Shown here: in pieces, positions 4,910-54,402 of the stretch
How the letters are laid out: every line of letters begins with the position of its first letter
Position numbering within the stretch: the stretch's first letter is position 1
The notes under the pieces: generated by a model
Told to the model about the DNA's origin: nothing
Seen by the model: the letters and a program-made list of their open reading frames with translations, nothing else
Database searches by the model: none
Made by a program: the position numbers and the translations under genes
From: Acidimicrobiia bacterium
GTDB taxonomy: Bacteria > Actinomycetota > Acidimicrobiia > Acidimicrobiales > JANYDT01
Direction: 5' to 3'
Assembly (NCBI GenBank): GCA_031423635.1
Contig: JANPFX010000083.1
Location: 5,108-69,107, forward strand
DNA: 64,000 bases

Positions 4910-5158
4910 CGGTGGCTGCTGCGCGTCGTGTGGGAACTCCGTGACGGCCCGGTCGGATTCCGCGCTCTGGCCCAACAATGCGATGGTGTCTCGACCGCCG
5001 TGCTTCGTGACCGTGTCCTCGAGCTCGCCGACGCCGGCATCGTCGACCAGAACGACGAACGCCACTACCGTTTGACCCGGCTCGGACAGGAATTGATCGT
5101 CGCTCTGACGCCCATCGACGAATGGTCCAAGCGGTGGGCCAACACCCTGCGTCGTTGA
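4883..5158 (+). CDS. HxlR-family winged-helix transcriptional regulator
   Basis: MAALDLLGHRWLLRVVWELRDGPVGFRALAQQCDGVSTAVLRDRVLELADAGIVDQNDERHYRLTRLGQEL matches the HxlR pattern. The start was moved to the ATG at 4883, inside ORF 4715..5158. Confidence 0.75.
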   Translation: MAALDLLGHRWLLRVVWELRDGPVGFRALAQQCDGVSTAVLRDRVLELADAGIVDQNDERHYRLTRLGQELIVALTPIDEWSKRWANTLRR

Positions 5159-5191
5159 AGCCGAACGCCGCTGGAGGCAGCGACGCCGTCG

Positions 5192-6730
5192 TCAGTGGCG
5201 GAAGTGGCGACGGCCGGTGAACACCATGGCGATGTCGTGCTCGTCGGCGGCGGCGATGACTTCCTCGTCGCGCATCGAACCGCCCGGCGCGATCACCGCA
5301 CGAACGCCTGCCGTGGCGACCACATCGAGGCCATCTCGGAACGGGAAGAACGCGTCGCTCGCACACGCACCGCCCATCGCCCGCTCCCCAGCCTTTCGCA
5401 CCGCGATCTGCGCGGCATCGACGCGGCTTTGCTGGCCGGCACCGATCCCTGCGGCCATCGAGTCGTTGGCGATGACGATCGCGTTCGACGACACGTGCGC
5501 ACACACAACCCATGCGACCGCGAGATCGCGCCACTCATGCTCCGACGGAGACCGCTTCGTGACGACGGTCCACTCGTCGCGCCTGGCGAGGTCCTCGCCG
5601 ATCACATCGGGTGTCTGGACGAGCAGGCCTCCGTCGATGGAGCGCACGGAGAGCGGAGCCGCTCCGGGCGGAGGCGCCGACAGAACCCGGAGGTTCTTCT
5701 TCGACAGGAGCAGCCCGAGGGCGTCGTCGTCGTAACCCGGAGCGATCACCACTTCGCTGAAGACCGGAGCGAGCGATTCGGCGAGTGCCAGAGGGACACG
5801 CTGATTGATGGCGACAATTCCGCCGAACGCCGAAACGGGGTCACCGAGATGGGCGAGCCGGTAGGCCGTCGAGACGTCCGACGCAACTGCGGCACCGCAA
5901 GGGTTCGCATGCTTGATGATCGCGACGGCCGGCGCAATCCCGTCTGCGCCGCCTGCCGCTGCGAGATCGTGCACCAGACGCCATGCCGCGTCGGCGTCAT
6001 AGACGTTGAGATAGCTGAGCTCCTTGCCACCGTGCTGCGTTGCACGGTCCCACCAGCTCGACGCACCGTGCAAGCGGTATCGCGCACCTCGTTGGTGCGG
6101 ATTCTCGCCGTAGCGAAGCGTTTCGGCGTGTTCCAGCGCGAGCCCGATGGTGGGCGGAAAGCCGCCGGTGTCCGAATCATCTGTATACGTATCAAGCCAT
6201 TGAACGATCGCCGCGTCGTATGCCGACGTGTGGGCGAACGCCTTTCGGGCAAGACGGACACGGGTCGATGTGGAGAGCGCGCCGGACGCCATGAGTTCGG
6301 CGATGACCGGCCCATAGTCCGCCGGATCGACGACGACGCCGACGGCATCATGGTTCTTGGCCGCTGATCGGAGCATCGACGGACCGCCGATGTCGATCAA
6401 CTCGACGGAAGGATCGGACGAGAACGGATAGAGATTGCACACCACGAGGTCGATCGGCGTGATGCCGTGGGCAGCAATGGTCTCGAGGTGTTCGGGAAAG
6501 TCGCGACGGGCGAGGATGCCTCCGTGAATCGCTGGATGAAGTGTCTTGACACGGCCGTCGAGCATCTCGGGAAACCCGGTCACGTCCTCGACCGAGAGGT
6601 GGTCGATCCCGGCGGCGCGGAGTGCGGCCGAGGTACCGCCACTGGAGACGATCTCGACGTCCAGCGAGCGCAGGGAGCGGGCGAAGTCGACGATGCCGGT
6701 CTTGTCGAAGACCGAGAGCAGTCCTCTCAC
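5192..6730 (-). CDS. purH: bifunctional AICAR formyltransferase / IMP cyclohydrolase
   Basis: VRGLLSVFDKTGIVDFARSL...GRVKTLHPAIHGGILARR...FFPFRDG...GGSMRD...FTGRRHFRH. The start was set at the GTG at 6730, which overlaps the upstream stop as GTGA. This gives 512 aa, the normal PurH size. Confidence 0.95.
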   Translation of the reverse strand: MRGLLSVFDKTGIVDFARSLRSLDVEIVSSGGTSAALRAAGIDHLSVEDVTGFPEMLDGRVKTLHPAIHGGILARRDFPEHLETIAAHGITPIDLVVCNLYPFSSDPSVELIDIGGPSMLRSAAKNHDAVGVVVDPADYGPVIAELMASGALSTSTRVRLARKAFAHTSAYDAAIVQWLDTYTDDSDTGGFPPTIGLALEHAETLRYGENPHQRGARYRLHGASSWWDRATQHGGKELSYLNVYDADAAWRLVHDLAAAGGADGIAPAVAIIKHANPCGAAVASDVSTAYRLAHLGDPVSAFGGIVAINQRVPLALAESLAPVFSEVVIAPGYDDDALGLLLSKKNLRVLSAPPPGAAPLSVRSIDGGLLVQTPDVIGEDLARRDEWTVVTKRSPSEHEWRDLAVAWVVCAHVSSNAIVIANDSMAAGIGAGQQSRVDAAQIAVRKAGERAMGGACASDAFFPFRDGLDVVATAGVRAVIAPGGSMRDEEVIAAADEHDIAMVFTGRRHFRH

Positions 6731-7401
6731 GTGCGCCACACAGGATCTCTCGGCGGGTCGAACTGGGTGGGTTGCCGCGCGCCCTGCACTGCCGCGAATG
6801 CCTGCGGCACCCAGCGCTCCAGACCGATGAGCGGCGTCGGGAGGTTGTCCTCCCGGAACCATCCAACATCGGTGGCTTCGAGTGGATGCGGCTGCAGCGT
6901 GCCTCCCGTGGCCCGGCAGAAGAAGACGATGGAGTAGAGCGGAACGGTGGTGAAGCCGTGGCGCATCCCATCGACGATCGAGAGCACCGAGACCGGTTCG
7001 CACTCGATGCCGGTCTCCTCCCGTACCTCCTTGACCGCTACTTCCGCCGGTGAGTAGCCGATGTCGGCCCAGCCGGTGGGGTAGAGCCAATGCCCGGAAT
7101 CGGCACGCTGGAGCAGCAACAGCTCACCGTCGTCGTTGCCGACCACTGCGCCGACCGCGATCTTCGGTGTCACGTAGCCGGGGACGCCGCTTCCGACGCT
7201 GCGCATCCACTCACCGTGAAGCTCCTCACGAACGAGATCGTGACCGGCGGCCACCCGCATGTCCGACGCGACGTGGAGGATCTCCTCGTAGCGCTCACGC
7301 TCGTACTGCACTTGGGAGAAGCCGAGTCCGGTGCGGGCGATCCCGGCGAGCGTCTCACTCCAGCGCAGCAGCTCCGCCCGGGTGACCCGGTCGGACGTCA
7401 C
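6727..7401 (-). CDS. NUDIX hydrolase with N-terminal Nudix-associated domain
   Basis: Nudix box GWADIGYSPAEVAVKEVREETGIE. The N-terminal region LLRWSETLAGIARTGLGFSQVQYERERYEEIL is typical of the ADP-ribose pyrophosphatase-like subgroup. The start is probably the GTG at 7401. Confidence 0.85.
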   Translation of the reverse strand: MTSDRVTRAELLRWSETLAGIARTGLGFSQVQYERERYEEILHVASDMRVAAGHDLVREELHGEWMRSVGSGVPGYVTPKIAVGAVVGNDDGELLLLQRADSGHWLYPTGWADIGYSPAEVAVKEVREETGIECEPVSVLSIVDGMRHGFTTVPLYSIVFFCRATGGTLQPHPLEATDVGWFREDNLPTPLIGLERWVPQAFAAVQGARQPTQFDPPRDPVWRT

Positions 7402-7477
7402 AACGTTTCCCGGTTCAAGTTCAGTGTCGCGTTGTCGCCGATGAGGCGGAACGGGGCACCGCGAACTGCACGCAAGC

Positions 7478-47203: not shown

Positions 47204-47746
47204 GTGGTCTACACCCCGATCATCGGCACGCTGGCCTATGTCGTCGACCGCACATCGGACCGCGGTCCGGGCGGCGCAGCACTCCTCGTGCATCGCAACG
47301 CCCGACCCGACGATGAGCACCTCGGCAAATGGAACGGACTCGGCGGCAAGTTGGAGGCCGACGAGGACGTCGCCGCGGGACTACGGCGCGAGTTGCAGGA
47401 GGAGGCCGCGATCGAGGTCACCTCGATGCAGTTGCGCGGAACGGTGAGCTGGCCCGGTTTCGGGCCGAACGGTGAGGACTGGTTGGGCTTCGTCTTCCTC
47501 GTCGACGGGTGGACCGGAGTTCCCCCGTCGAGCAACGAGGAGGGCCGACTGGAATGGGTGCCGCTTCCGCGTCTGCTCCGGGCATGCAGTCCCGATGCCG
47601 GAGACCGCGAAGCGGCCGATCTCCCGATGTGGGAAGGCGACCGGTTCTTCCTACCGCTCGTTTTCGACGACGACCCGCGGTCCTTCCATGGCGTGATGCC
47701 CTACGAACAAGGTCGCCCGGTCGGTTGGACGTGGGAACGCTGGTGA
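47204..47746 (+). CDS. NUDIX hydrolase (MutT-like)
   Basis: Nudix box GKWNGLGGKLEADEDVAAGLRRELQEEAAIE. GTG start. Confidence 0.85.
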   Translation: MVYTPIIGTLAYVVDRTSDRGPGGAALLVHRNARPDDEHLGKWNGLGGKLEADEDVAAGLRRELQEEAAIEVTSMQLRGTVSWPGFGPNGEDWLGFVFLVDGWTGVPPSSNEEGRLEWVPLPRLLRACSPDAGDREAADLPMWEGDRFFLPLVFDDDPRSFHGVMPYEQGRPVGWTWERW

Positions 47747-49116
47747 CAACCAGGCCGGCCGCAGCCCGCAGCCGATGGAGACCCTTTGCTCTGACCCTGA
47801 TCGGCGCCTGCTCAGTCCTCGCCCGGCAGCCCCCATCCGCACCGGCATCGGGCCGGGTCGCAGCGACGGTCGATGGGCGCGTCGAATCGGTCGCCGCCCG
47901 CTTCGCACTGATCCGGTCGCACCTGGGCTACCGACACTGGACGCGATTGGACGAGGTGGTCGCGCTCGCCCAGGCCAAGGATGCCCCGAGCGGTCCGCTG
48001 ACCGGATTGATGGTCGCCGTGAAGGACAACATCGACCTCTCGTGGCTGCCCACGTCTGCTGGTGCCTCGGCCCTCCGCAACCGACGACCGGCTCGGAACG
48101 CGTCGGTCGTCGATCGACTGCTCGCGTCCGGGGCGGTGATCGCCGGCCACACGAACATGGACACCTGGGCACGCGGCGTCCGATCGGTCAGCGAAACATT
48201 CGGCGCGACGGCGAATGCGCTCAACCCGAGCCGCGGACCGATGGGTTCGAGCGGCGGCTCCGCCGTCGCAGTGGCGCTCGGAGAGGTCGATGCCGCTCTC
48301 GGAACGGACACGTGCGGCTCCCTGCGCTACCCCGCTGCAGCGAATGTCATCGTTGCGTTGCGTCCGACGCCGGGCCTGGTGAGCCGGGCCGGGATCGTCC
48401 CGCTCGCGCCGACTCAAGACGTCGTCGGCCCGATGGCAAGGGATGTCCGAATGCTCGCCCGCATGCTCGACGTAATCGCCGGAACGGACCCGCGGGACCC
48501 GCTCACACAGCTCGCTCCGCGTCCCGATCGCACGTACACAGAGGATCTACAGGGGCCGCGCGGACCGGTGTCGGGCGCGCCGCGTCGCTGGCGCGTCGGT
48601 GTCGTCCGGACGCTCGGGCCGTTTCGCCGCGACTCGACGGGTCTCACGATGCTCGACAAGATGAGTGCAGCAGGAATCGACCTCGTGAACGTCTCGATGG
48701 CGAAGGCTCCGTTCGCGGGCGTGATCGACGACGAGTCTGCGGCCACTCGCGCCCTTGTGCTGGCGGACGCGGACGAGTCAACGTGGCTCGTCGACTCCCT
48801 CCGGGTTCCGAACCGATCCACCTACGCGTCCCGGCTCCGTGACCGGAAGCTCTCCGCGTCCAGTCTCACGGCACTGCTCGACCGCAACGGTCTCGACGCG
48901 CTCACCTACCCGACGACCCCGTTCGGACCCGCTCTACGCGGTCAGCGTCAGGCGAGCGCGAACTGCCAGTTCTCCGCCACGAGTGGGTTGCCCGCTCTGG
49001 CGCTCGGACACGGCGTCGATGCTGACAACATCGCCGTTCCCGGTGTGGATCTGCTCGGCCGGGAGTTCGACGAGTCGACCCTTCTCCGCCTCGGACTGGC
49101 GATCACGGAGACGTGA
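47743..49116 (+). CDS. amidase-signature family enzyme with lipoprotein signal peptide
   Basis: The start is the GTG at 47743, overlapping the Nudix stop as GTGA. N-terminus RWRPFALTLIGAC carries a lipobox. AS motifs are VAVKDNID and GSSGGSAVAVALG...GTDTCGSLRYPA. Confidence 0.8.
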   Translation: MTTRPAAARSRWRPFALTLIGACSVLARQPPSAPASGRVAATVDGRVESVAARFALIRSHLGYRHWTRLDEVVALAQAKDAPSGPLTGLMVAVKDNIDLSWLPTSAGASALRNRRPARNASVVDRLLASGAVIAGHTNMDTWARGVRSVSETFGATANALNPSRGPMGSSGGSAVAVALGEVDAALGTDTCGSLRYPAAANVIVALRPTPGLVSRAGIVPLAPTQDVVGPMARDVRMLARMLDVIAGTDPRDPLTQLAPRPDRTYTEDLQGPRGPVSGAPRRWRVGVVRTLGPFRRDSTGLTMLDKMSAAGIDLVNVSMAKAPFAGVIDDESAATRALVLADADESTWLVDSLRVPNRSTYASRLRDRKLSASSLTALLDRNGLDALTYPTTPFGPALRGQRQASANCQFSATSGLPALALGHGVDADNIAVPGVDLLGREFDESTLLRLGLAITET

Positions 49117-49609
49117 GCCGGGCCATCTGCGCAGTGTGGACGGCGACGCAGGAGCGGGTGGCGTCGTCCGCGTCGACGCCACACCCGACGGAGGCGACGA
49201 CGACGACGTCGACTCGACCGAACGCCAGCGCCGACCAGATTGTCGTTCCCGCCCCGTCGTCCTCCGAAACCAATGCGACGGTCACCGAGTCGCAGTGCCG
49301 GACACCGGCGTTGCCGGCGTGCAGCTCCGACCACGAGTCGGCGACGCCGAGAACAGCGGCCGACGGATCCCCCAGCCGATAGAGCACCACCCGGGCCACG
49401 AGGTCCTGAGGATCGTCCAGCTTCCACCAGCACCTGAGCGCACCGACGCGGAAGCCTCGTGTACTCAGCCGACTTCGTTCGGCCTGCGGGTCCCGATGCA
49501 GCAGTGCAGCGTCCGGAAGGTCCAGAGCAGACGTCTCGACCTCGGTCGACAGCGGATCGAACGAAAACGACACGAGCAAGGCCGACAGTGACGGCAGTAC
49601 GCCGGTCAT
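49103..49609 (-). CDS. hypothetical protein (168 aa)
   Basis: A 4-nt overlap with the upstream membrane-protein gene suggests co-translation. No family was recognised. Confidence 0.45.
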   Translation of the reverse strand: MTGVLPSLSALLVSFSFDPLSTEVETSALDLPDAALLHRDPQAERSRLSTRGFRVGALRCWWKLDDPQDLVARVVLYRLGDPSAAVLGVADSWSELHAGNAGVRHCDSVTVALVSEDDGAGTTIWSALAFGRVDVVVVASVGCGVDADDATRSCVAVHTAQMARLTSP

Positions 49610-50169
49610 CTCACTGATCCCACGAAGGCGACGATCGAGAGGACCACGACGACCAGAGAGGCACCACGGCCGACTCGGAACTCGACCCGGCTCAGCCAGG
49701 CGCTCCGCTCAGCCATCTGCGTCCCGCTGCGAACGCTGGCCGACGAGACGTACATCGACAGTGCACGCATCAAGGCAAACACCAACGAGCCGACGACGAT
49801 CCACCCGGGACCGGAGATCGCCGCAACGACGAACGCCGCCCACCACACCCAGGAGACCAGGATCGTCGCCGGGCCGAAGCCCATACGGAAGCCGTAGCGC
49901 GCCGCGGCTTTCCAGGGCCCGAGGCGGTGTCCGTAGTCACGGGGGACCTGCCGGTGAACGGCGAGCGGACGGACCCCGCGGGAGCGGTTGACCGGGAAGG
50001 TGTCGAGACCGACTGCGAGGAGTCCGCCTGCTCCGGCGACACCGGCTGACATCGGGCCGATGCCGACGCCCTGGGCCACCAGAGCGGCAAGAAGTCCGGG
50101 GACGGTTCCGCCGATGAACGCCGAGAAGGCGAACACGGCGAGGTTGAGTGGCTGAAGCGCACGTCGCAC
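49606..50169 (-). CDS. hypothetical integral membrane protein (about 4 TM)
   Basis: The hydrophobic segments include NLAVFAFSAFIGGTVPGLLAALVA and LVSWVWWAAFVVAAI. There are no cysteines. Confidence 0.55.
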   Translation of the reverse strand: MRRALQPLNLAVFAFSAFIGGTVPGLLAALVAQGVGIGPMSAGVAGAGGLLAVGLDTFPVNRSRGVRPLAVHRQVPRDYGHRLGPWKAAARYGFRMGFGPATILVSWVWWAAFVVAAISGPGWIVVGSLVFALMRALSMYVSSASVRSGTQMAERSAWLSRVEFRVGRGASLVVVVLSIVAFVGSVR

Positions 50170-50267
50170 GGACGGGCTGACGGTCTCCGCGACCGATCGG
50201 CCTCACGGAGACCAGAGCGACTGAAGCCCGGCGATCGCGAAGAGAAGACCGGAGAAAACCTGCGCGC

Positions 50268-51821
50268 TTACTTCTTCGTCGCCTTCGTGGAGGACGTCGA
50301 TTCGGGAGCGGACGTCGTCGTCGTGGTTGTGATCGGCGCTGCACCCGGAGCGGTCCGCGGCGGCGGGGTCTGCGCCGGCGCAAAGCCGATCGGCCGCTTG
50401 TGACGGGCCCGCGGAACCACGCCGGGCACACTGGTCGACGGAGCCGGGCCGGACACACGGACCATCCCGATCGGACGCTCCTCGAGCGGTTGGGCGAAGA
50501 CCGGCAGACCGACCCCGTCGTCGTCACCCCGGAGGAACTGGCGGTCGTAGCCGTTGAGGGCGCCCTGCAACTCGAGCACGCCCGCGTCACCCAGCCCGCC
50601 GGGAACAGTGAGAACGCACTCGGCGACGGCGAACCGAGCCCGCCGGGCGACCAGCCAGTCGCGGAAGTCCGGCGAGATCACCGAGTCGTCGTGCACCAGC
50701 AATGGGCCGCCGACAGGAAGATAGCCACCACCCAGGCGCGCCGAGGACGCCGGGACGAACGCTAGACCGAAGGTACGACGGGGCTCGGCTGCGTCGAAGA
50801 GCCGATCGGCCAGGGCTCGGCTGAGCGTCCGCACGTTCCGACCGCTGATCCGCTCACCCTCGCCCACCAGCGAGGGATCGCCGGCGCCCTCGCCGACCAA
50901 GAGGCATGGACCAGATCGTCCGGACTGCCCGCGGAACGCGTTCACCGCATCCGTCCCGATCAGCAACGGCGAGCCGGTCGCTGCGGCGTAGGCGGACGCC
51001 GAGGCGGCAATGTCGAGACTCGGCGCGTCGGCACCGATGCACACCGCGCCAGTTCGTTCGGTCGAACCGGACACCAGGACGGCCACGTCCACGGAGGCCA
51101 CAGCGATATCGGTCGGCGAACCGACCAACGTCACTTCGATCGTCGCCGAACGCAGAGCGCCGAGCACGGCGTCGGAGACGCCTGCAGCGACGACAGTCGC
51201 CGAGCGGACCCCCAGTCGGGAGAGTTCGGGGAGCAGACCCGGCCGGAGCGATGCCGGGTCGGTGAGCACCAGTGGGGTTCCCGTGGAGTTCGCCAGCGGT
51301 CCGGCGATCGCCGCAGCCAGCACGTCGGCGGAAGCGATCACGACGCCCGGTGTCGATCCGGCGGGGCGCGTCGCGAGTCGGGCAAGCGAAAGGTCCGCGG
51401 CATCGGCGGCGTAGCTGCGTTCCAGCGCAACCTTCTGGAGCCGTGGATCCTCGAGGCAGCTCTCCACCATGCAGTACACGTTGTGCCCGTCGGGGCAGTA
51501 GCCGTGAACGTTCGGGTGGTTCCGCTTGCAGCAGTCGCAGATCTTCTTCAGACCGCCGTTGGTGCAGCAGCCGGGACTGGCGTACCAGCACCACCCCCAG
51601 ACCACGTCGGATCCGACGCAGTCATAGGTCGGGCACCTCGGCGACACGCCTGACTGCCCGCAGGCCCGCGCCTCGGCGCGAGTGGCGAACACGGAAGCCA
51701 GCGTCGCCCCGCCGGCGACGACAACCGCGGCCTTTCCCGTGGTGGCGATGAATGTGCGCCTCGTCGTCCGCGATGCCATCCACCGCGACGCGCGCTCGAC
51801 AACGCGGTCGAGGGAACTCAT
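50268..51821 (-). CDS. Tat-exported protein: 12-Cys MADH-light-chain-like module + three CWB2-like cell-wall-binding repeats + Thr/Lys tail
   Basis: Tat signal SRTTRRTFIATTGKAAVVVAGGATLASVFATRAEA. Cys module CGQSGVSPRCPTYDCVGSDVVWGWCWYASPGCCTNGGLKKICDCCKRNHPNVHGYCPDGHNVYCMVESC. There are three repeats of the type VVIASADVLAAAIAGPLANSTGTPLVLTD...ATVVAAGVSDAVLGAL. The ATG overlaps the upstream stop (ATGA). Confidence 0.75.
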   Translation of the reverse strand: MSSLDRVVERASRWMASRTTRRTFIATTGKAAVVVAGGATLASVFATRAEARACGQSGVSPRCPTYDCVGSDVVWGWCWYASPGCCTNGGLKKICDCCKRNHPNVHGYCPDGHNVYCMVESCLEDPRLQKVALERSYAADAADLSLARLATRPAGSTPGVVIASADVLAAAIAGPLANSTGTPLVLTDPASLRPGLLPELSRLGVRSATVVAAGVSDAVLGALRSATIEVTLVGSPTDIAVASVDVAVLVSGSTERTGAVCIGADAPSLDIAASASAYAAATGSPLLIGTDAVNAFRGQSGRSGPCLLVGEGAGDPSLVGEGERISGRNVRTLSRALADRLFDAAEPRRTFGLAFVPASSARLGGGYLPVGGPLLVHDDSVISPDFRDWLVARRARFAVAECVLTVPGGLGDAGVLELQGALNGYDRQFLRGDDDGVGLPVFAQPLEERPIGMVRVSGPAPSTSVPGVVPRARHKRPIGFAPAQTPPPRTAPGAAPITTTTTTSAPESTSSTKATKK

Positions 51822-52303
51822 CGAACGCCTCCGACACCGGACGAACCGAGCCTGGCTTCCCGGACCAGTTCTTCGATCTGCTCCAGTGAGTTCGCAACCC
51901 CGCGACCCCGGACGACACCGGCCGAATCAACCGCGACGACGTAGGGAGTGGACCTCACCGCCATTGCATCGAACACCGGCGCATCCGCGTCGAGGTCGAC
52001 AGTCTGCACGTGAAGTTCCCGGTACTGCCGGCGAAACGCATCGAGCGATGGACGAAGCTCCCGACAGAGCACACACGTCCGCGACGTGAAAAGCAGAACG
52101 GTGAGCACACTCGCCGACCAGTCGATACCCACAGCGGGTGCCCGAGCGTCGAGCTCGGGACCTTCGGAAGCGAAGTGCACACCCATCGGCGCGAGCCGCT
52201 GATGCAGGACCCCGATCTGGCGTAGCAGGGCCACCACGGCCACGGCGAGAACGGCCACGACGAGCCAGAGCGCCAGGAATGCGACGACCCAAGGTCCCGT
52301 CAT
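51818..52303 (-). CDS. MauD-like membrane-anchored thioredoxin-fold protein
   Basis: N-terminal TM WVVAFLALWLVVAVLAVAVVALL. CxxC motif in LLFTSRTCVLCREL. The C-terminal GVVRGRGVANSLEQIEEL resembles the MauD/TlpA-like end. Confidence 0.7.
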   Translation of the reverse strand: MTGPWVVAFLALWLVVAVLAVAVVALLRQIGVLHQRLAPMGVHFASEGPELDARAPAVGIDWSASVLTVLLFTSRTCVLCRELRPSLDAFRRQYRELHVQTVDLDADAPVFDAMAVRSTPYVVAVDSAGVVRGRGVANSLEQIEELVREARLGSSGVGGVR

Positions 52304-52304
52304 C

Positions 52305-52871
52305 TCACACGTCCGACCGGGAAGTGGGAAACACAGACCCGGTGACGAGCCTCAGTTCGGCCAAAGCGTGAATCAGAAGGCCGATGCTGACCACACCGAG
52401 GCCGACCATGAGACTCGCCAACCGCTCGACGGCGTCGATCGTCAGGACGGACGGGGCCGGCCAGGCGAGGAGCGATGCGGCAATCAGCCCGCCGTTGCGG
52501 AGAAGTGACACCGAGGTCACCGGGGTAGAAGATCCCGCGCCGAAACAACCGCAACGAACCGTTCGCCCCGTGGCGAGGGCCCGGCGGAGAAGCACCGCGA
52601 AGACCGCGAGAAGACCGGTGGCGGCGGCGGCGCCGGCCGCAGGAACGAAAAGAAGCATCATTGCCACGCCAAGTTCGACCGGGGCGACGAAGGAAGCGGC
52701 CACAGCGGGAACGCCGAGGGCGATCGTCGCCTCACCCGTTGCTGCGGGCGAACGGAGCTTGGCCACCGCTGCGACGACGAAGACGCCCGCGACGACGAAG
52801 GCACATGCCAGGGAAATCGTCGACAAGGAGACAGCCGTCAGTCGAGAAGGGAAAGCGCTTGTTTCGGACAC
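52305..52871 (-). CDS. MauE/DoxX-family membrane protein
   Basis: Four hydrophobic segments and the RCGCFG motif characteristic of MauE. The GTG start at 52871 overlaps the ferredoxin gene by 34 nt. An alternative start is the TTG at 52826. Confidence 0.7.
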   Translation of the reverse strand: MSETSAFPSRLTAVSLSTISLACAFVVAGVFVVAAVAKLRSPAATGEATIALGVPAVAASFVAPVELGVAMMLLFVPAAGAAAATGLLAVFAVLLRRALATGRTVRCGCFGAGSSTPVTSVSLLRNGGLIAASLLAWPAPSVLTIDAVERLASLMVGLGVVSIGLLIHALAELRLVTGSVFPTSRSDV

Positions 52872-53071
52872 ATGCGGACAGCGGTCTGGACGGCAACGCG
52901 TCGATCGGCTGATGGCTCCTCGTTCAGGATGACGAGTTCGTCGTTGTCGTCGATCTCGAAGATGTCGGGGGCATGACCGACGCAGAGTCCGTTGCTTTCA
53001 CACTTGGGACGGTCGACCGAGATGCGCACAGATTCATTCTGTCCGAACCGCGGAGCTACGCCGGGCATCAT
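52838..53071 (-). CDS. small [3Fe-4S]-type ferredoxin
   Basis: RISVDRPKCESNGLCVGHAPDIFEIDD...AVRMCPKQALSLL. The start was set at the MM pair (53071/53068). Confidence 0.8.
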   Translation of the reverse strand: MMPGVAPRFGQNESVRISVDRPKCESNGLCVGHAPDIFEIDDNDELVILNEEPSADRRVAVQTAVRMCPKQALSLLD

Positions 53072-53136
53072 CGGTCGCCCCGGCGGCCACCTGCCCGGTT
53101 GTGACTCTCGGCTCATCGTTCCCTACGTTGGTGTCC

Positions 53137-54402
53137 ATGACTTTTCGTGACGTCTTGGCGGTCGACGACATCAACCTGTCGGAACTCGAGTTCTGGGCTC
53201 GACCCCTCGCCGAACGCGAAGGCGCGTTTCACCGCCTGCGCACAGAGCGCCCGCTGGCCTTCTTCGCCGAGCCCAACATCGAGAGCGATCTGATTCCGGT
53301 CGGGCCCGGGTACTACGCGGTCACGAAGTACGACGACATCCTTGAGGTATCGAAGAACCCTGAGCTGTACTGCTCCGGACGCGGCGCCACATCGATCGCC
53401 GACATGCCCGATTTCATGCTCGACTTCTTCGGTTCCATGATCAACATGGACGACCCACGGCACGCCCGCCTCCGAAAGATCGTCTCCGCGGCGTTCACCC
53501 CGAGGATGCTCAAAGCCATCGAGGACCAGGTCGTCATCGCCGCACGGGAGATCGTCGACGATGTGCTCCGCAAGGGCGGCGGTGACTTCGTGACCGACGT
53601 CGCCGCCCGCCTTCCGCTCAAGGTCATCTGCGACATGATGGGGATTCCCGAATCCGAGTACGAGACCGTCTTCTCGAGGTCGAACGTCATCCTCGGGGCA
53701 GCCGACGCCGAATACGTTCCGCAGGGGAGCGCAGACGTTGTCATCAATGCGCTGCTCACGGCCGGAGGCGATCTCCACAAACTCGTCTCCGACCTGGGCG
53801 CGGCCCGACGAGCCGATCCGACGGACGACTTGACAAGCGCACTGGTGAACACCGAAGTCGATGGAGAGCGCCTCAGCGACAGTGAACTGGGGTCGTTCTT
53901 CATCCTCCTCGTCGTCGCCGGAAACGAGACCACCCGCAACGCCATCGCCCACGGGCTCGATCTGTTCACGAAGAACCCCGAACAGCGCGACTTCGTGGCC
54001 GCAGACATCCCTACGCGCATGCCGGGTGCGGTGGAGGAGATCGTCCGCGTCGCATCGCCGGTCGTCTGGATGCGACGCACGGCGACCAGGTCAGGGAGTC
54101 TTCGTGGCGTCGACTTCGCCGAGGGCTCGAAGTTCATCCTCTATTACTGGTCGGCCAACCGCGACACGGACGTGTTCACTGATCCGTATCGCTTCGACGT
54201 TTCGCGCTCGCCGAATCCCCACGTCGGCTTCGGCGGGCCCGGCCCGCACTTCTGCCTCGGCGCGCACCTCGCGCGTCGCGAGATCGGCGTGATGTGGAAG
54301 GAACTGCTCTCCCGCGCCCCGAAGGTTCAGGCCACGGCAGAGCCCGACCGTCTGCTCTCGTCGTTCATCAACGGCATCAAGCACCTCGAGTTCTCCGTCT
54401 GA
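53137..54402 (+). CDS. cytochrome P450
   Basis: Heme-binding loop FGGPGPHFCLGAHLARRE, I-helix VVAGNETTRN and the EIVR (ExxR) motif. The start is the ATG at 53137 (MTFRDV). Confidence 0.92.
   Translation: MTFRDVLAVDDINLSELEFWARPLAEREGAFHRLRTERPLAFFAEPNIESDLIPVGPGYYAVTKYDDILEVSKNPELYCSGRGATSIADMPDFMLDFFGSMINMDDPRHARLRKIVSAAFTPRMLKAIEDQVVIAAREIVDDVLRKGGGDFVTDVAARLPLKVICDMMGIPESEYETVFSRSNVILGAADAEYVPQGSADVVINALLTAGGDLHKLVSDLGAARRADPTDDLTSALVNTEVDGERLSDSELGSFFILLVVAGNETTRNAIAHGLDLFTKNPEQRDFVAADIPTRMPGAVEEIVRVASPVVWMRRTATRSGSLRGVDFAEGSKFILYYWSANRDTDVFTDPYRFDVSRSPNPHVGFGGPGPHFCLGAHLARREIGVMWKELLSRAPKVQATAEPDRLLSSFINGIKHLEFSV

Follow-up and report, generated by a model that had tools for sequence, protein, structure and literature searches.

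A probable mau-derived operon in Acidimicrobiia links MauE-, MauD- and MauF-like proteins to a cysteine-rich putative client with a MauA-type leader

The 64-kb stretch of Acidimicrobiia DNA analysed here (contig JANPFX010000083.1, referred to as the window; G+C approximately 67%) carries an operon of five co-directional genes on the minus strand, spanning 49103..52871, that resembles part of the mau cluster for methylamine dehydrogenase (MADH). The order is E-D-A-X187-w168. The first gene (E; 52305..52871) encodes a MauE-like polytopic membrane protein of 188 aa, which may be a thiol oxidase of the DsbB-like, quinone-linked kind, and the second (D; 51818..52303) a MauD-like protein of 161 aa that is anchored in the membrane at its N-terminus and has a thioredoxin fold. 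The third (A; 50268..51821) encodes a protein of 517 aa that consists of a MauA-type leader, a module with 12 cysteines, a predicted triple CWB2 wall anchor, a conserved C-terminal motif and a Thr/Pro/Lys tail. It is followed by X187 (49606..50169), a cysteine-less, MauF-like polytopic membrane protein of 187 aa with CcdA/DsbD_2-like character, and by w168 (49103..49609), a soluble domain. We consider it probable, though well short of certain, that these genes form a self-contained, mau-derived operon which exports and oxidatively folds a single dedicated client, the product of A.

An initial annotation of the window, based on the letters alone, had described the first three genes as a translationally coupled unit at 50268-52871. 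The three open reading frames (ORFs) lie where it placed them and their junctions can be read directly from the sequence: E and D are separated by a 1-nt gap (TGA-G-ATG), and D and A overlap by ATGA. The end of the unit at 50268 did not hold, as X187 and w168 extend the operon to 49103. The start of w168 overlaps the stop of X187 by a further ATGA, and three of the four junctions in the operon are translationally coupled. The sole untranslated gap is the 98-nt spacer between A and X187, in which an 11-nt inverted repeat (50182-50213; GGTCTCCGCGA / TCACGGAGACC) has the potential to form a hairpin; the folding of the whole spacer does not stand out from that of shuffled sequences (z=0.04), and a scan of 48800-53400 for promoters and terminators yielded nothing informative. 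The start of E is ambiguous, since the GTG at 52871 overlaps an upstream ferredoxin-like ORF by 34 nt and an alternative TTG lies at codon 16 (52826).

The arrangement is not peculiar to the window. More than 275 homologs of protein A were found, of which almost none is named. When one genome per GTDB species was scanned, 72 loci emerged, almost all titled Acidimicrobiia or Acidimicrobiales or, more broadly, Actinomycetota or Actinomycetes, with one metagenome-assembled genome (MAG) labelled Acidobacteria. The neighbourhoods, taken as 10 kb on either side of each A homolog, were examined by tblastn and by unbiased clustering of their ORFs. The order E-D-A-X187 on one strand was found in approximately 65 of the 72 loci. 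Gene by gene, A was detected in 70, the MauD-like gene in 65-68, the MauE-like gene in 54-60 and X187, directly downstream of A, in 64, whilst an iterative jackhmmer search placed w168 downstream in 56. An arrangement that recurs in 72 related loci is not the product of chance, and E and D accompany the 517-aa gene in virtually all of the related genomes, a co-occurrence that the initial annotation had proposed as a check. That annotation had also likened the order E-D-A to that of mau clusters and had reported no mauB, mauC or mauG in the window. Both points stand. The order is the same, the genes are coupled and the first two have MauE-like and MauD-like identities; and tblastn with MauB, MauG, amicyanin, MauJ, MauM and MauN of P. 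denitrificans gave no hit at E<=1e-3 in the window and 78 related loci (1.25 Mb).

The link from A to the mau system is made by its leader. Residues 1-51 (51669..51821, minus strand) form a MauA-type leader, an extended twin-arginine signal with the pattern D5-x3-E9-x3-R13-x2-A16-x4-R21R22-x-F, in which T-R-R-T-F-I at residues 20-25 is followed by a hydrophobic stretch at 27-45 and by AEA at 49-51; cleavage after AEA, before R52, is likely. In 34 genuine precursors of light chains that carry tryptophan tryptophylquinone (TTQ), residues D8, E12, R16, A19, R24 and R25 are invariant, and the spacing of D5, E9, R13, A16, R21 and R22 in the A family is identical. Comparison of the A leader with the MauA leader by hhalign gave 98.2% (E=3.7e-14). 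The N-region alone, comprising the 19 columns before the arginine pair, gave 96.9% (E=1.7e-10) and, because it matches on its own, the likeness is more than a generic twin-arginine translocation (Tat) motif. A hidden Markov model (HMM) of the MauA leader only scored 68 of 71 A-family ORFs at 20-39 bits, with the next best of 4,888 ORFs at 7.5 bits. The sole near-significant match of the N-terminal profile in the PDB was 3c75_L, a light chain deposited with its leader, and the TAT_signal_seq model TIGR01409 matches 17 of 32 A-family N-termini. Judged by these sequence comparisons, homology of the client to MauA is firm for the leader only.

The accessory proteins point in the same direction. 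E matches Pfam PF07291 (MauE) at 65.8 bits (gathering threshold 27; E=6e-18) over profile positions 3-126 of 128, and the E-family HMM in turn matches canonical MauE at 40-76 bits. Its CXC-FG motif, R106-C107-G108-C109-F110-G111 (52539..52556, minus strand), is read from the sequence. In an alignment of 61 family members the two cysteines of the CGC are conserved at >=95% and >=80%, and K38 and E66 are likewise conserved; we equate these two residues with a lysine in the first and a glutamate in the second transmembrane (TM) helix of described MauE proteins by helix position and not from an alignment of both sets. MauE proteins can replace DsbB in a dsbB mutant of E. coli, with an essential CXC and with the F-G, lysine and glutamate conserved (Gonzalez et al., 2026; bioRxiv 10.64898/2026.03.05.709764), and by analogy E is a putative DsbB-like thiol oxidase. 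D scores 58.8 bits (E=4.8e-16) against the NCBIfam MauD model TIGR02661, under its equivalog cut-off of 188.6, and 26.8 bits against Pfam Thioredoxin. It aligns end to end by blastp with four canonical MauD proteins from annotated mau/aau clusters (E 7e-15 to 2e-20), the best alignment joining residues 1-157 to residues 1-190 of Cupriavidus MauD (E=1.8e-20) and the other three falling at 7e-15 to 2e-19, and the D-family HMM scores the same four at 94-96 bits. D has one TM segment at residues 1-35, an LLRQIG.L motif and a CxxC redox motif, C77-V-L-C80 (52064..52075, minus strand), both cysteines of which are conserved in a 69-sequence family alignment; it ends in GVANSLEQIEEL and is approximately 40 residues shorter than canonical MauD. 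On sequence it is classed as MauD-like and not as a MauD equivalog. The initial reading of the first gene as MauE-type with an RCGCFG motif, and of the second as an anchored, MauD-like thioredoxin-fold protein with a CVLC motif and the C-terminal end given above, is thus borne out.

These identities could also be taken to mean that E, D and X187 are a general envelope disulfide system, to which the 517-aa protein is merely an abundant or regulatory neighbouring client. MauE complements dsbB, MauA is present in only approximately 10% of MauE-containing species and MauE is viewed by the authors of that work as a generalist (Gonzalez et al., 2026), and E and D could be the only oxidative pathway of their hosts. 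Such a system would not be expected to account for a client that keeps the MauA-specific N-region of the leader, for an E-D-A-X order that is essentially invariant over 72 species-level genomes and that recurs around stand-alone module proteins of unrelated lengths in other metagenomic lineages, or for translational coupling at three of the four junctions, and we regard this explanation as unlikely. The pathway described in the preprint, analogous to DsbB-DsbA and VKOR, shares with the window a four-helix MauE with the CXC-FG motif, the lysine and the glutamate, and a thioredoxin-fold partner; it differs in its generalist view, and MauF, the MauA leader and dedicated clients are not discussed there. 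In the window MauE is locked in an operon with a MauD, a MauF-like protein and one leader-bearing client, which argues for a specialised module.

The relationship of X187 to MauF had to be established with home-built profiles, because neither protein has a model in Pfam or NCBIfam: searches of both databases gave no match for X187 or for canonical MauF, and a weak DsbD_2 hit in one relative only. An HMM of X187 scored P. denitrificans MauF at 20.8 bits with a first profile and at 25.8 bits with an X187-only profile (maximum of approximately 2,000 shuffles, 5.8), and the match runs through the common motif RxQVP...YGxxLGxxxLT, which in the X187 family reads RxQVP...YGxRLGxGPxT. Compared with a profile of 39 MauF sequences, X187 gave hhalign values of 91.3-92.8% (E=4e-7 to 1e-6) over 132-134 columns, whilst membrane-protein controls gave approximately 0%. 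Only the C-terminal half of MauF is covered, residues ~114-260 of a protein of ~277 aa; among the homologs of MauF, some bear the label CcdA or contain DsbD_2. When the X187 profile is cleared of C-terminal extensions, 34 loci show w168 joined to the C-terminus of an X187-like domain, 21, among them the clade of the window, have it as an ORF of its own beside X187, and in 9 w168 is undetected. It has no match in Pfam, in NCBIfam, among canonical Mau proteins or among the neighbours of stand-alone relatives, and no conserved cysteine. A natural fusion of the X187-like and MauE families occurs on a metagenomic contig (L081:1154-2293; ENA ERZ27258818), where a single protein of 379 aa comprises an X187/MauF-like domain at residues ~21-204 and a MauE domain at 208-370, which points to a functional link between the MauF-like and MauE families.

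The part of the client on which this machinery would act is the 12-Cys module at residues 52-127 (51441..51668, minus strand). Its cysteines, C54, C63, C68, C78, C85, C86, C95, C97, C98, C109, C117 and C122, fall within 69 residues, with WGWCW at 75-79, and these features, like the Thr/Lys tail, are as first described. In 107 sequences all 12 cysteines are invariant, together with W79, Y80, K92, K93, D96, Y108, E120, S121, D125 and R127, and mean pairwise identity is 0.78 (0.73 without the cysteine columns) in the module versus 0.32 in the CWB2 region. Conservation this extreme suggests a specific ligand, partner or chemistry, and not a mere structural knot. AlphaFold2 (AF2) predicts a compact beta-sheet domain with three long strands, with a predicted local distance difference test (pLDDT) score of 84-94 in the full-length model and of 75 for the module in isolation.

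Cysteines in CC and CDCC motifs occur in metallothionein-like proteins, and Tat substrates, to which the twin-arginine leader of A would assign it, are typically loaded with cofactor in the cytoplasm. The 12 cysteines might on these grounds bind metal in place of forming disulfides, as an Fe-S or Cu/Zn site loaded before Tat export or as a means of extracellular sequestration. The initial annotation had taken the histidines between the cysteines as a hint of a metal or cofactor. We reject the idea of His-based metal binding, because H102, H106 and H113 vary across the A family. There is in addition no ferredoxin-type CxxCxxC spacing and no match to a metal-binding family, the obligatory partners are a disulfide oxidase and a thioredoxin-fold protein, and the compact predicted domain is obtained without any metal. 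Metal binding by the module is accordingly very improbable.

A harder question is whether the module is related to the TTQ light chains themselves. The product of A had been called light-chain-like, a description that the leader supports and the mature module does not. The module has no match to Pfam PF02975 at E<=1, and searches of Pfam, NCBIfam and the PDB (phmmer and HMM) and with Foldseek found nothing significant beyond the leader, mature MADH and aromatic amine dehydrogenase (AADH) chains in the PDB not being matched. The structural comparison with the small subunits of these two enzymes, which had been proposed as a check, came out negative: the best Foldseek match of the module model had E=3.0 and no MADH or AADH light chain was among 33 hits, with the limit that Foldseek is weak on small disulfide-rich domains and that the isolated model has the pLDDT of 75 given above. 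Against canonical mature light chains hhalign gave 8-9% in two differing registers, a score equalled by 1 of 60 column shuffles. A broadened superfamily profile of the module does match a compact light chain of Thermomicrobium roseum at 51-61% (E ~1e-4), which lies in the twilight zone, and 0 of 150 shuffles reach this score in any of four nulls. In this twilight-zone alignment W79 corresponds to TTQ Trp57 and D96-C97-C98 to Asp76-Cys77-Cys78, whilst the candidate equivalent of Trp108, the residue before C117, is Y, R, F, L or K, with no conserved aromatic. Homology of the mature core to TTQ light chains is therefore suggestive at the level of sequence, and canonical TTQ in the module is unlikely.

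Two related proposals carry little weight. By the first, the module is a reduced relative of the TTQ core with a cofactor or cross-link of its own, such as a hydroxylated or quinone W79 or a Cys-Trp link, and A, held at the wall, is a miniature quinoprotein or redox domain whose maturation needs no MauG. The leader and the three accessory genes common to TTQ systems, the T. roseum match with its register and shuffles, and the invariance of W79, D96 and many other non-Cys residues, reflected in the identity that remains without the cysteine columns, all speak for it. It is hard to reconcile with the low score and competing registers against canonical mature light chains, with the failure to match PF02975 or any MADH or AADH structure, with the lack of a conserved aromatic at the candidate equivalent of the second TTQ tryptophan (W108), or with the finding that the conserved neighbours include neither MauG, a heavy chain or an electron acceptor nor a maturase of the radical-SAM or flavoprotein kind, and we think it quite unlikely. 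The second and more specific proposal would make the module an evolutionary sister of the TTQ core in which only MauE, MauD and the MauF-like protein, together with w168, produce a new protein-derived redox cofactor or cross-link at W79 and D96-C97-C98 without MauG, to be displayed on the wall as a minimal quinoprotein or redox relay. This is a long shot. The first oxygenation of Trp57 in preMADH is MauG-independent and still unassigned and, if the proposal were true, the cassette would show which mau accessory proteins carry it out.

Relatives of the module exist outside the full-length architecture. An exhaustive search of 1.84 billion representative proteins with a leader-plus-module HMM returned 76 hits only, comprising the full-length family, stand-alone leader-plus-module proteins of 124-158 aa and longer variants. 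The stand-alone module matches that of the window (hhalign 98.4%), and the stand-alone proteins adjoin MauE in every context examined. In four loci (L083-L086) the gene order is MauE, a small ORF, MauD-like, A-like and X187-like, with HMM scores of 50-76 bits for E, 76-100 for D, 35-45 for the leader and 14-66 for X. On two independent contigs the stand-alone cassettes are flanked by genes for an ECF-type (extracytoplasmic function) sigma factor and a CAP-domain (PF00188) protein (L084:5981-7048; L085:2919-3494 and 6839-7411), which hints at envelope-stress-linked regulation in these lineages. Three further proteins that matched the N-terminal profile (P0270, P0294 and P0297) look like frameshifted or merged gene calls, P0297 joining a MauD-like end to an A-like start in one ORF, so architecture counts based on length from that protein collection need care.

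The existence of stand-alone proteins raises the possibility of a toxin or a ribosomally synthesised and post-translationally modified peptide (RiPP), whose bioactive form would be the Cys module, cut off and set free as a disulfide-rich peptide. There is a precedent of sorts in Streptomyces, where decRiPPter flagged three families with mauE, one of them also with mauD, and with precursors of at least 8 cysteines (PMC7794033). Those clusters resemble the window in that an actinobacterial MauE, in some cases joined by MauD, neighbours a small Cys-rich product and other mau genes are missing. They differ in their precursors of 57-66 aa, which bear neither a twin-arginine nor a MauA-type leader and have another cysteine pattern, and neither a wall anchor nor a MauF-like gene is reported for them (PMC7794033). 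As candidate relatives of the module the Streptomyces precursors were rejected, their sequences being unrelated. The module of the window is moreover fused to a wall anchor of 390 aa, its gene is single-copy with 78% identity across the whole class, unlike fast-evolving antimicrobial peptides, and none of its conserved neighbours is a gene for a protease, an exporter or immunity. We hold release as a bioactive peptide to be extremely improbable.

The remainder of A appears to serve as an anchor. Residues ~130-425 (50547..51434, minus strand) are modelled as a tandem of three CWB2-like alpha/beta repeats, which may bind a secondary cell-wall polymer, within a full-length AF2 model of pLDDT 87.9 and predicted template modelling score 0.83; pLDDT is mostly 93-98 over residues 130-430. 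By sequence the three repeats that had been called here are weak, with a score of 14.2 bits (E=0.066) against Pfam CW_binding_2 (PF04122), below the gathering threshold of 24.9. PF04122 matches 4 of 20 A-family members at E<=0.1 (best E=1.8e-5), and one homolog has a precomputed PF04122 hit. By predicted structure the triple CWB2 fold is clear: Foldseek retrieved C. difficile Cwp6 (5j72, E=7.2e-12), Cwp8 (5j6q) and the high-molecular-weight subunit of SlpA (7acz/7acy), with E from 7e-12 to 3e-8 and probability 1.00 over 350-390 columns. These C. difficile proteins likewise combine three tandem CWB2 repeats with a separate functional domain. They differ in sequence (12-16% identity), in host, Firmicutes as opposed to Actinomycetota, and in their Sec-type leader, whereas the client in the window has a Tat-type leader and a tiny N-terminal Cys knot. 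The repeats are followed by a conserved C-terminal motif at residues 411-455 (50457..50591, minus strand), LQ(S/G)ALNG(F/Y)D..L.G..G.GLPV..QP.EER.IG..RV, with Q419, L430, G432, G438 and G452 invariant, a mean pairwise identity of 0.57 and pLDDT mostly ~90 apart from one 10-residue block near 60, and then by the low-complexity Thr/Pro/Lys tail.

Taken together, these observations can be arranged into a scheme for the dedicated client. A would be made with an extended twin-arginine leader as found on the TTQ light chains MauA and AauA, exported, probably by Tat, and freed of its leader after AEA. The triple CWB2 region would retain it on a wall polymer of its host, a monoderm actinobacterium. 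On the outer side of the membrane, the MauD-like thioredoxin, by way of its CVLC motif, may insert and perhaps shuffle six disulfides in the 12-Cys module, and the CGC site of the MauE-like protein would re-oxidise the MauD-like protein and pass electrons to the quinone pool. The MauF-like X187 and the often-fused w168 may be accessory subunits that probably contact MauE, and they may recognise the conserved N-region of the leader. An earlier proposal, that the locus is a repurposed Mau maturation module yielding a wall-anchored, disulfide-rich domain, remains the best reading, now with the E-D-A-X synteny and the leader homology to add to it.

Several considerations weigh against this scheme. 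Computation establishes the gene identities, the strict gene order, the leader homology, the CWB2 fold, the invariance of the cysteines and the lack of TTQ-specific genes nearby; disulfide formation by E and D, Tat dependence, wall binding and any part played by X187 and w168 are inferred. Tat normally exports folded proteins, a poor fit with disulfides made after export, and the same paradox applies to MauA. X187 does not extend to the half of MauF that holds its two conserved cysteines (reference positions 20 and 79), and no cysteine is conserved within the X187 family, so that X187 cannot share any thiol chemistry that MauF may have; w168 was not found in the stand-alone systems. The score of the MauD-like protein is far below the curated cut-off (58.8 versus 188.6), and so is that of A against the TTQ model TIGR02659 (17-20.5 bits; cut-off 196.85). 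If MauE is a generalist, as has been argued, a neighbouring gene need not encode its only client. The CWB2 assignment depends on predicted structure; to our knowledge the wall polymers of Acidimicrobiia are uncharacterised. The absence of other mau genes applies to 10 kb on either side of each homolog, and mauB or mauG could sit elsewhere in these genomes.

Compared with the TTQ cluster of P. denitrificans (mauFBEDACJGMN), the window has homologs of MauE, MauD and the C-terminal half of MauF, the order E-D-client, a client leader with the pattern D-x3-E-x3-R-x2-A-x4-RR and 12 cysteines as in mature MauA; even the 1-nt gap between mauE and mauD is the same (L073:6354-6356). It differs in having no heavy chain, MauG, amicyanin, MauJ, MauM or MauN nearby. 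The mature domain is ~75 residues as against ~130, is not of the PF02975 type, has no conserved equivalent of the second TTQ tryptophan and continues into a CWB2 anchor. The MauF-like protein has half the size, no cysteines and a gene located downstream, whereas mauF lies upstream in mau; there is an extra gene, w168; and the host is a monoderm actinobacterium where the mau host is a proteobacterium. The cassette resembles the F/E/D/A sub-module of mau in its working. It does not belong to the TTQ dehydrogenases: a PF02975 domain is missing, neither a heavy chain nor MauG is encoded nearby and the second TTQ tryptophan has no conserved equivalent.

The best bridge between the two is the compact light chain of T. 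roseum, which has in common with the window module the pattern W-Y...CC...DCC...CPxG. It is encoded by an unannotated ORF of plasmid NC_011961.1 (L077, ~4950-5330, plus strand), with ~100 mature residues and a TRRSWL signal, matches MADH light chains at 98.3% by hhalign and keeps both TTQ tryptophans. What it shares with the window is a small Cys-rich product with a Tat leader whose neighbours are MauE and MauD-like genes, in a host that is not a proteobacterium; it differs in being clearly of the PF02975 type with both TTQ tryptophans, and in having neither a MauA-type N-region nor a CWB2 anchor. A MauE fusion protein of 596 aa and a weak MauD-like gene lie downstream of it, a second annotated light-chain gene lies ~5 kb upstream and no canonical heavy chain is annotated nearby.

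Some neighbouring genes of the operon deserve mention. Directly upstream of the MauE-like gene, and overlapping it, is a 92-aa 3Fe-4S-type ferredoxin-like ORF (52838-53116, minus strand), divergent from a cytochrome-P450-like ORF of 433 aa (53101-54402, plus strand), both identified by eye. The ferredoxin-like ORF may be co-transcribed with the cassette in the window; as the pair is kept in the closest 6-8 relatives only, it lies outside the core cassette. An amidase-like ORF (47509-49116, plus strand), also identified by eye, is convergent with the end of the operon and overlaps the end of the w168 ORF by 14 nt, and a convergent amidase gene was found in 17 related loci. In approximately 38 loci a gene for a secreted DUF4214 protein (~290-310 aa, three repeats, Pfam E=7e-24; for example L031:7949-8881) lies on the same strand directly upstream of E; it is absent from the window.

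The initial annotation knew of no described system of this kind. In so far as this concerns the family itself we agree, having found no literature description of the A family, of a MauA-type leader outside amine dehydrogenases, of a MauF-like partner of MauE or its fusion to MauE, or of w168. The general idea is not wholly undescribed, given the earlier reports of MauE or MauD with Cys-rich precursors (PMC7794033) and of orphan MauE (Gonzalez et al., 2026).

MauE, MauD, MauF and the 57-residue leader of MauA have been known since the 1990s to be genetically required for methylamine dehydrogenase. MauE alone among them has recently been given a biochemical role, in a preprint only (Gonzalez et al., 2026). 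That all four elements travel with a client that is not MADH, with no genes for TTQ chemistry nearby, argues that together they are a device for leader-guided export and oxidative folding and not for cofactor synthesis; it argues further that MauF belongs functionally with MauE, as the natural fusion supports, and that the N-region of the leader is a recognition element. The cassette is a minimal natural system of four or five genes in which the roles of MauD, MauF and the MauA leader may be approached. It also defines an unnamed single-copy surface protein across the Acidimicrobiia, a class known here mainly from MAGs, and the 12-Cys head of this protein, far more constrained than its wall anchor, suggests some important envelope function still to be found.

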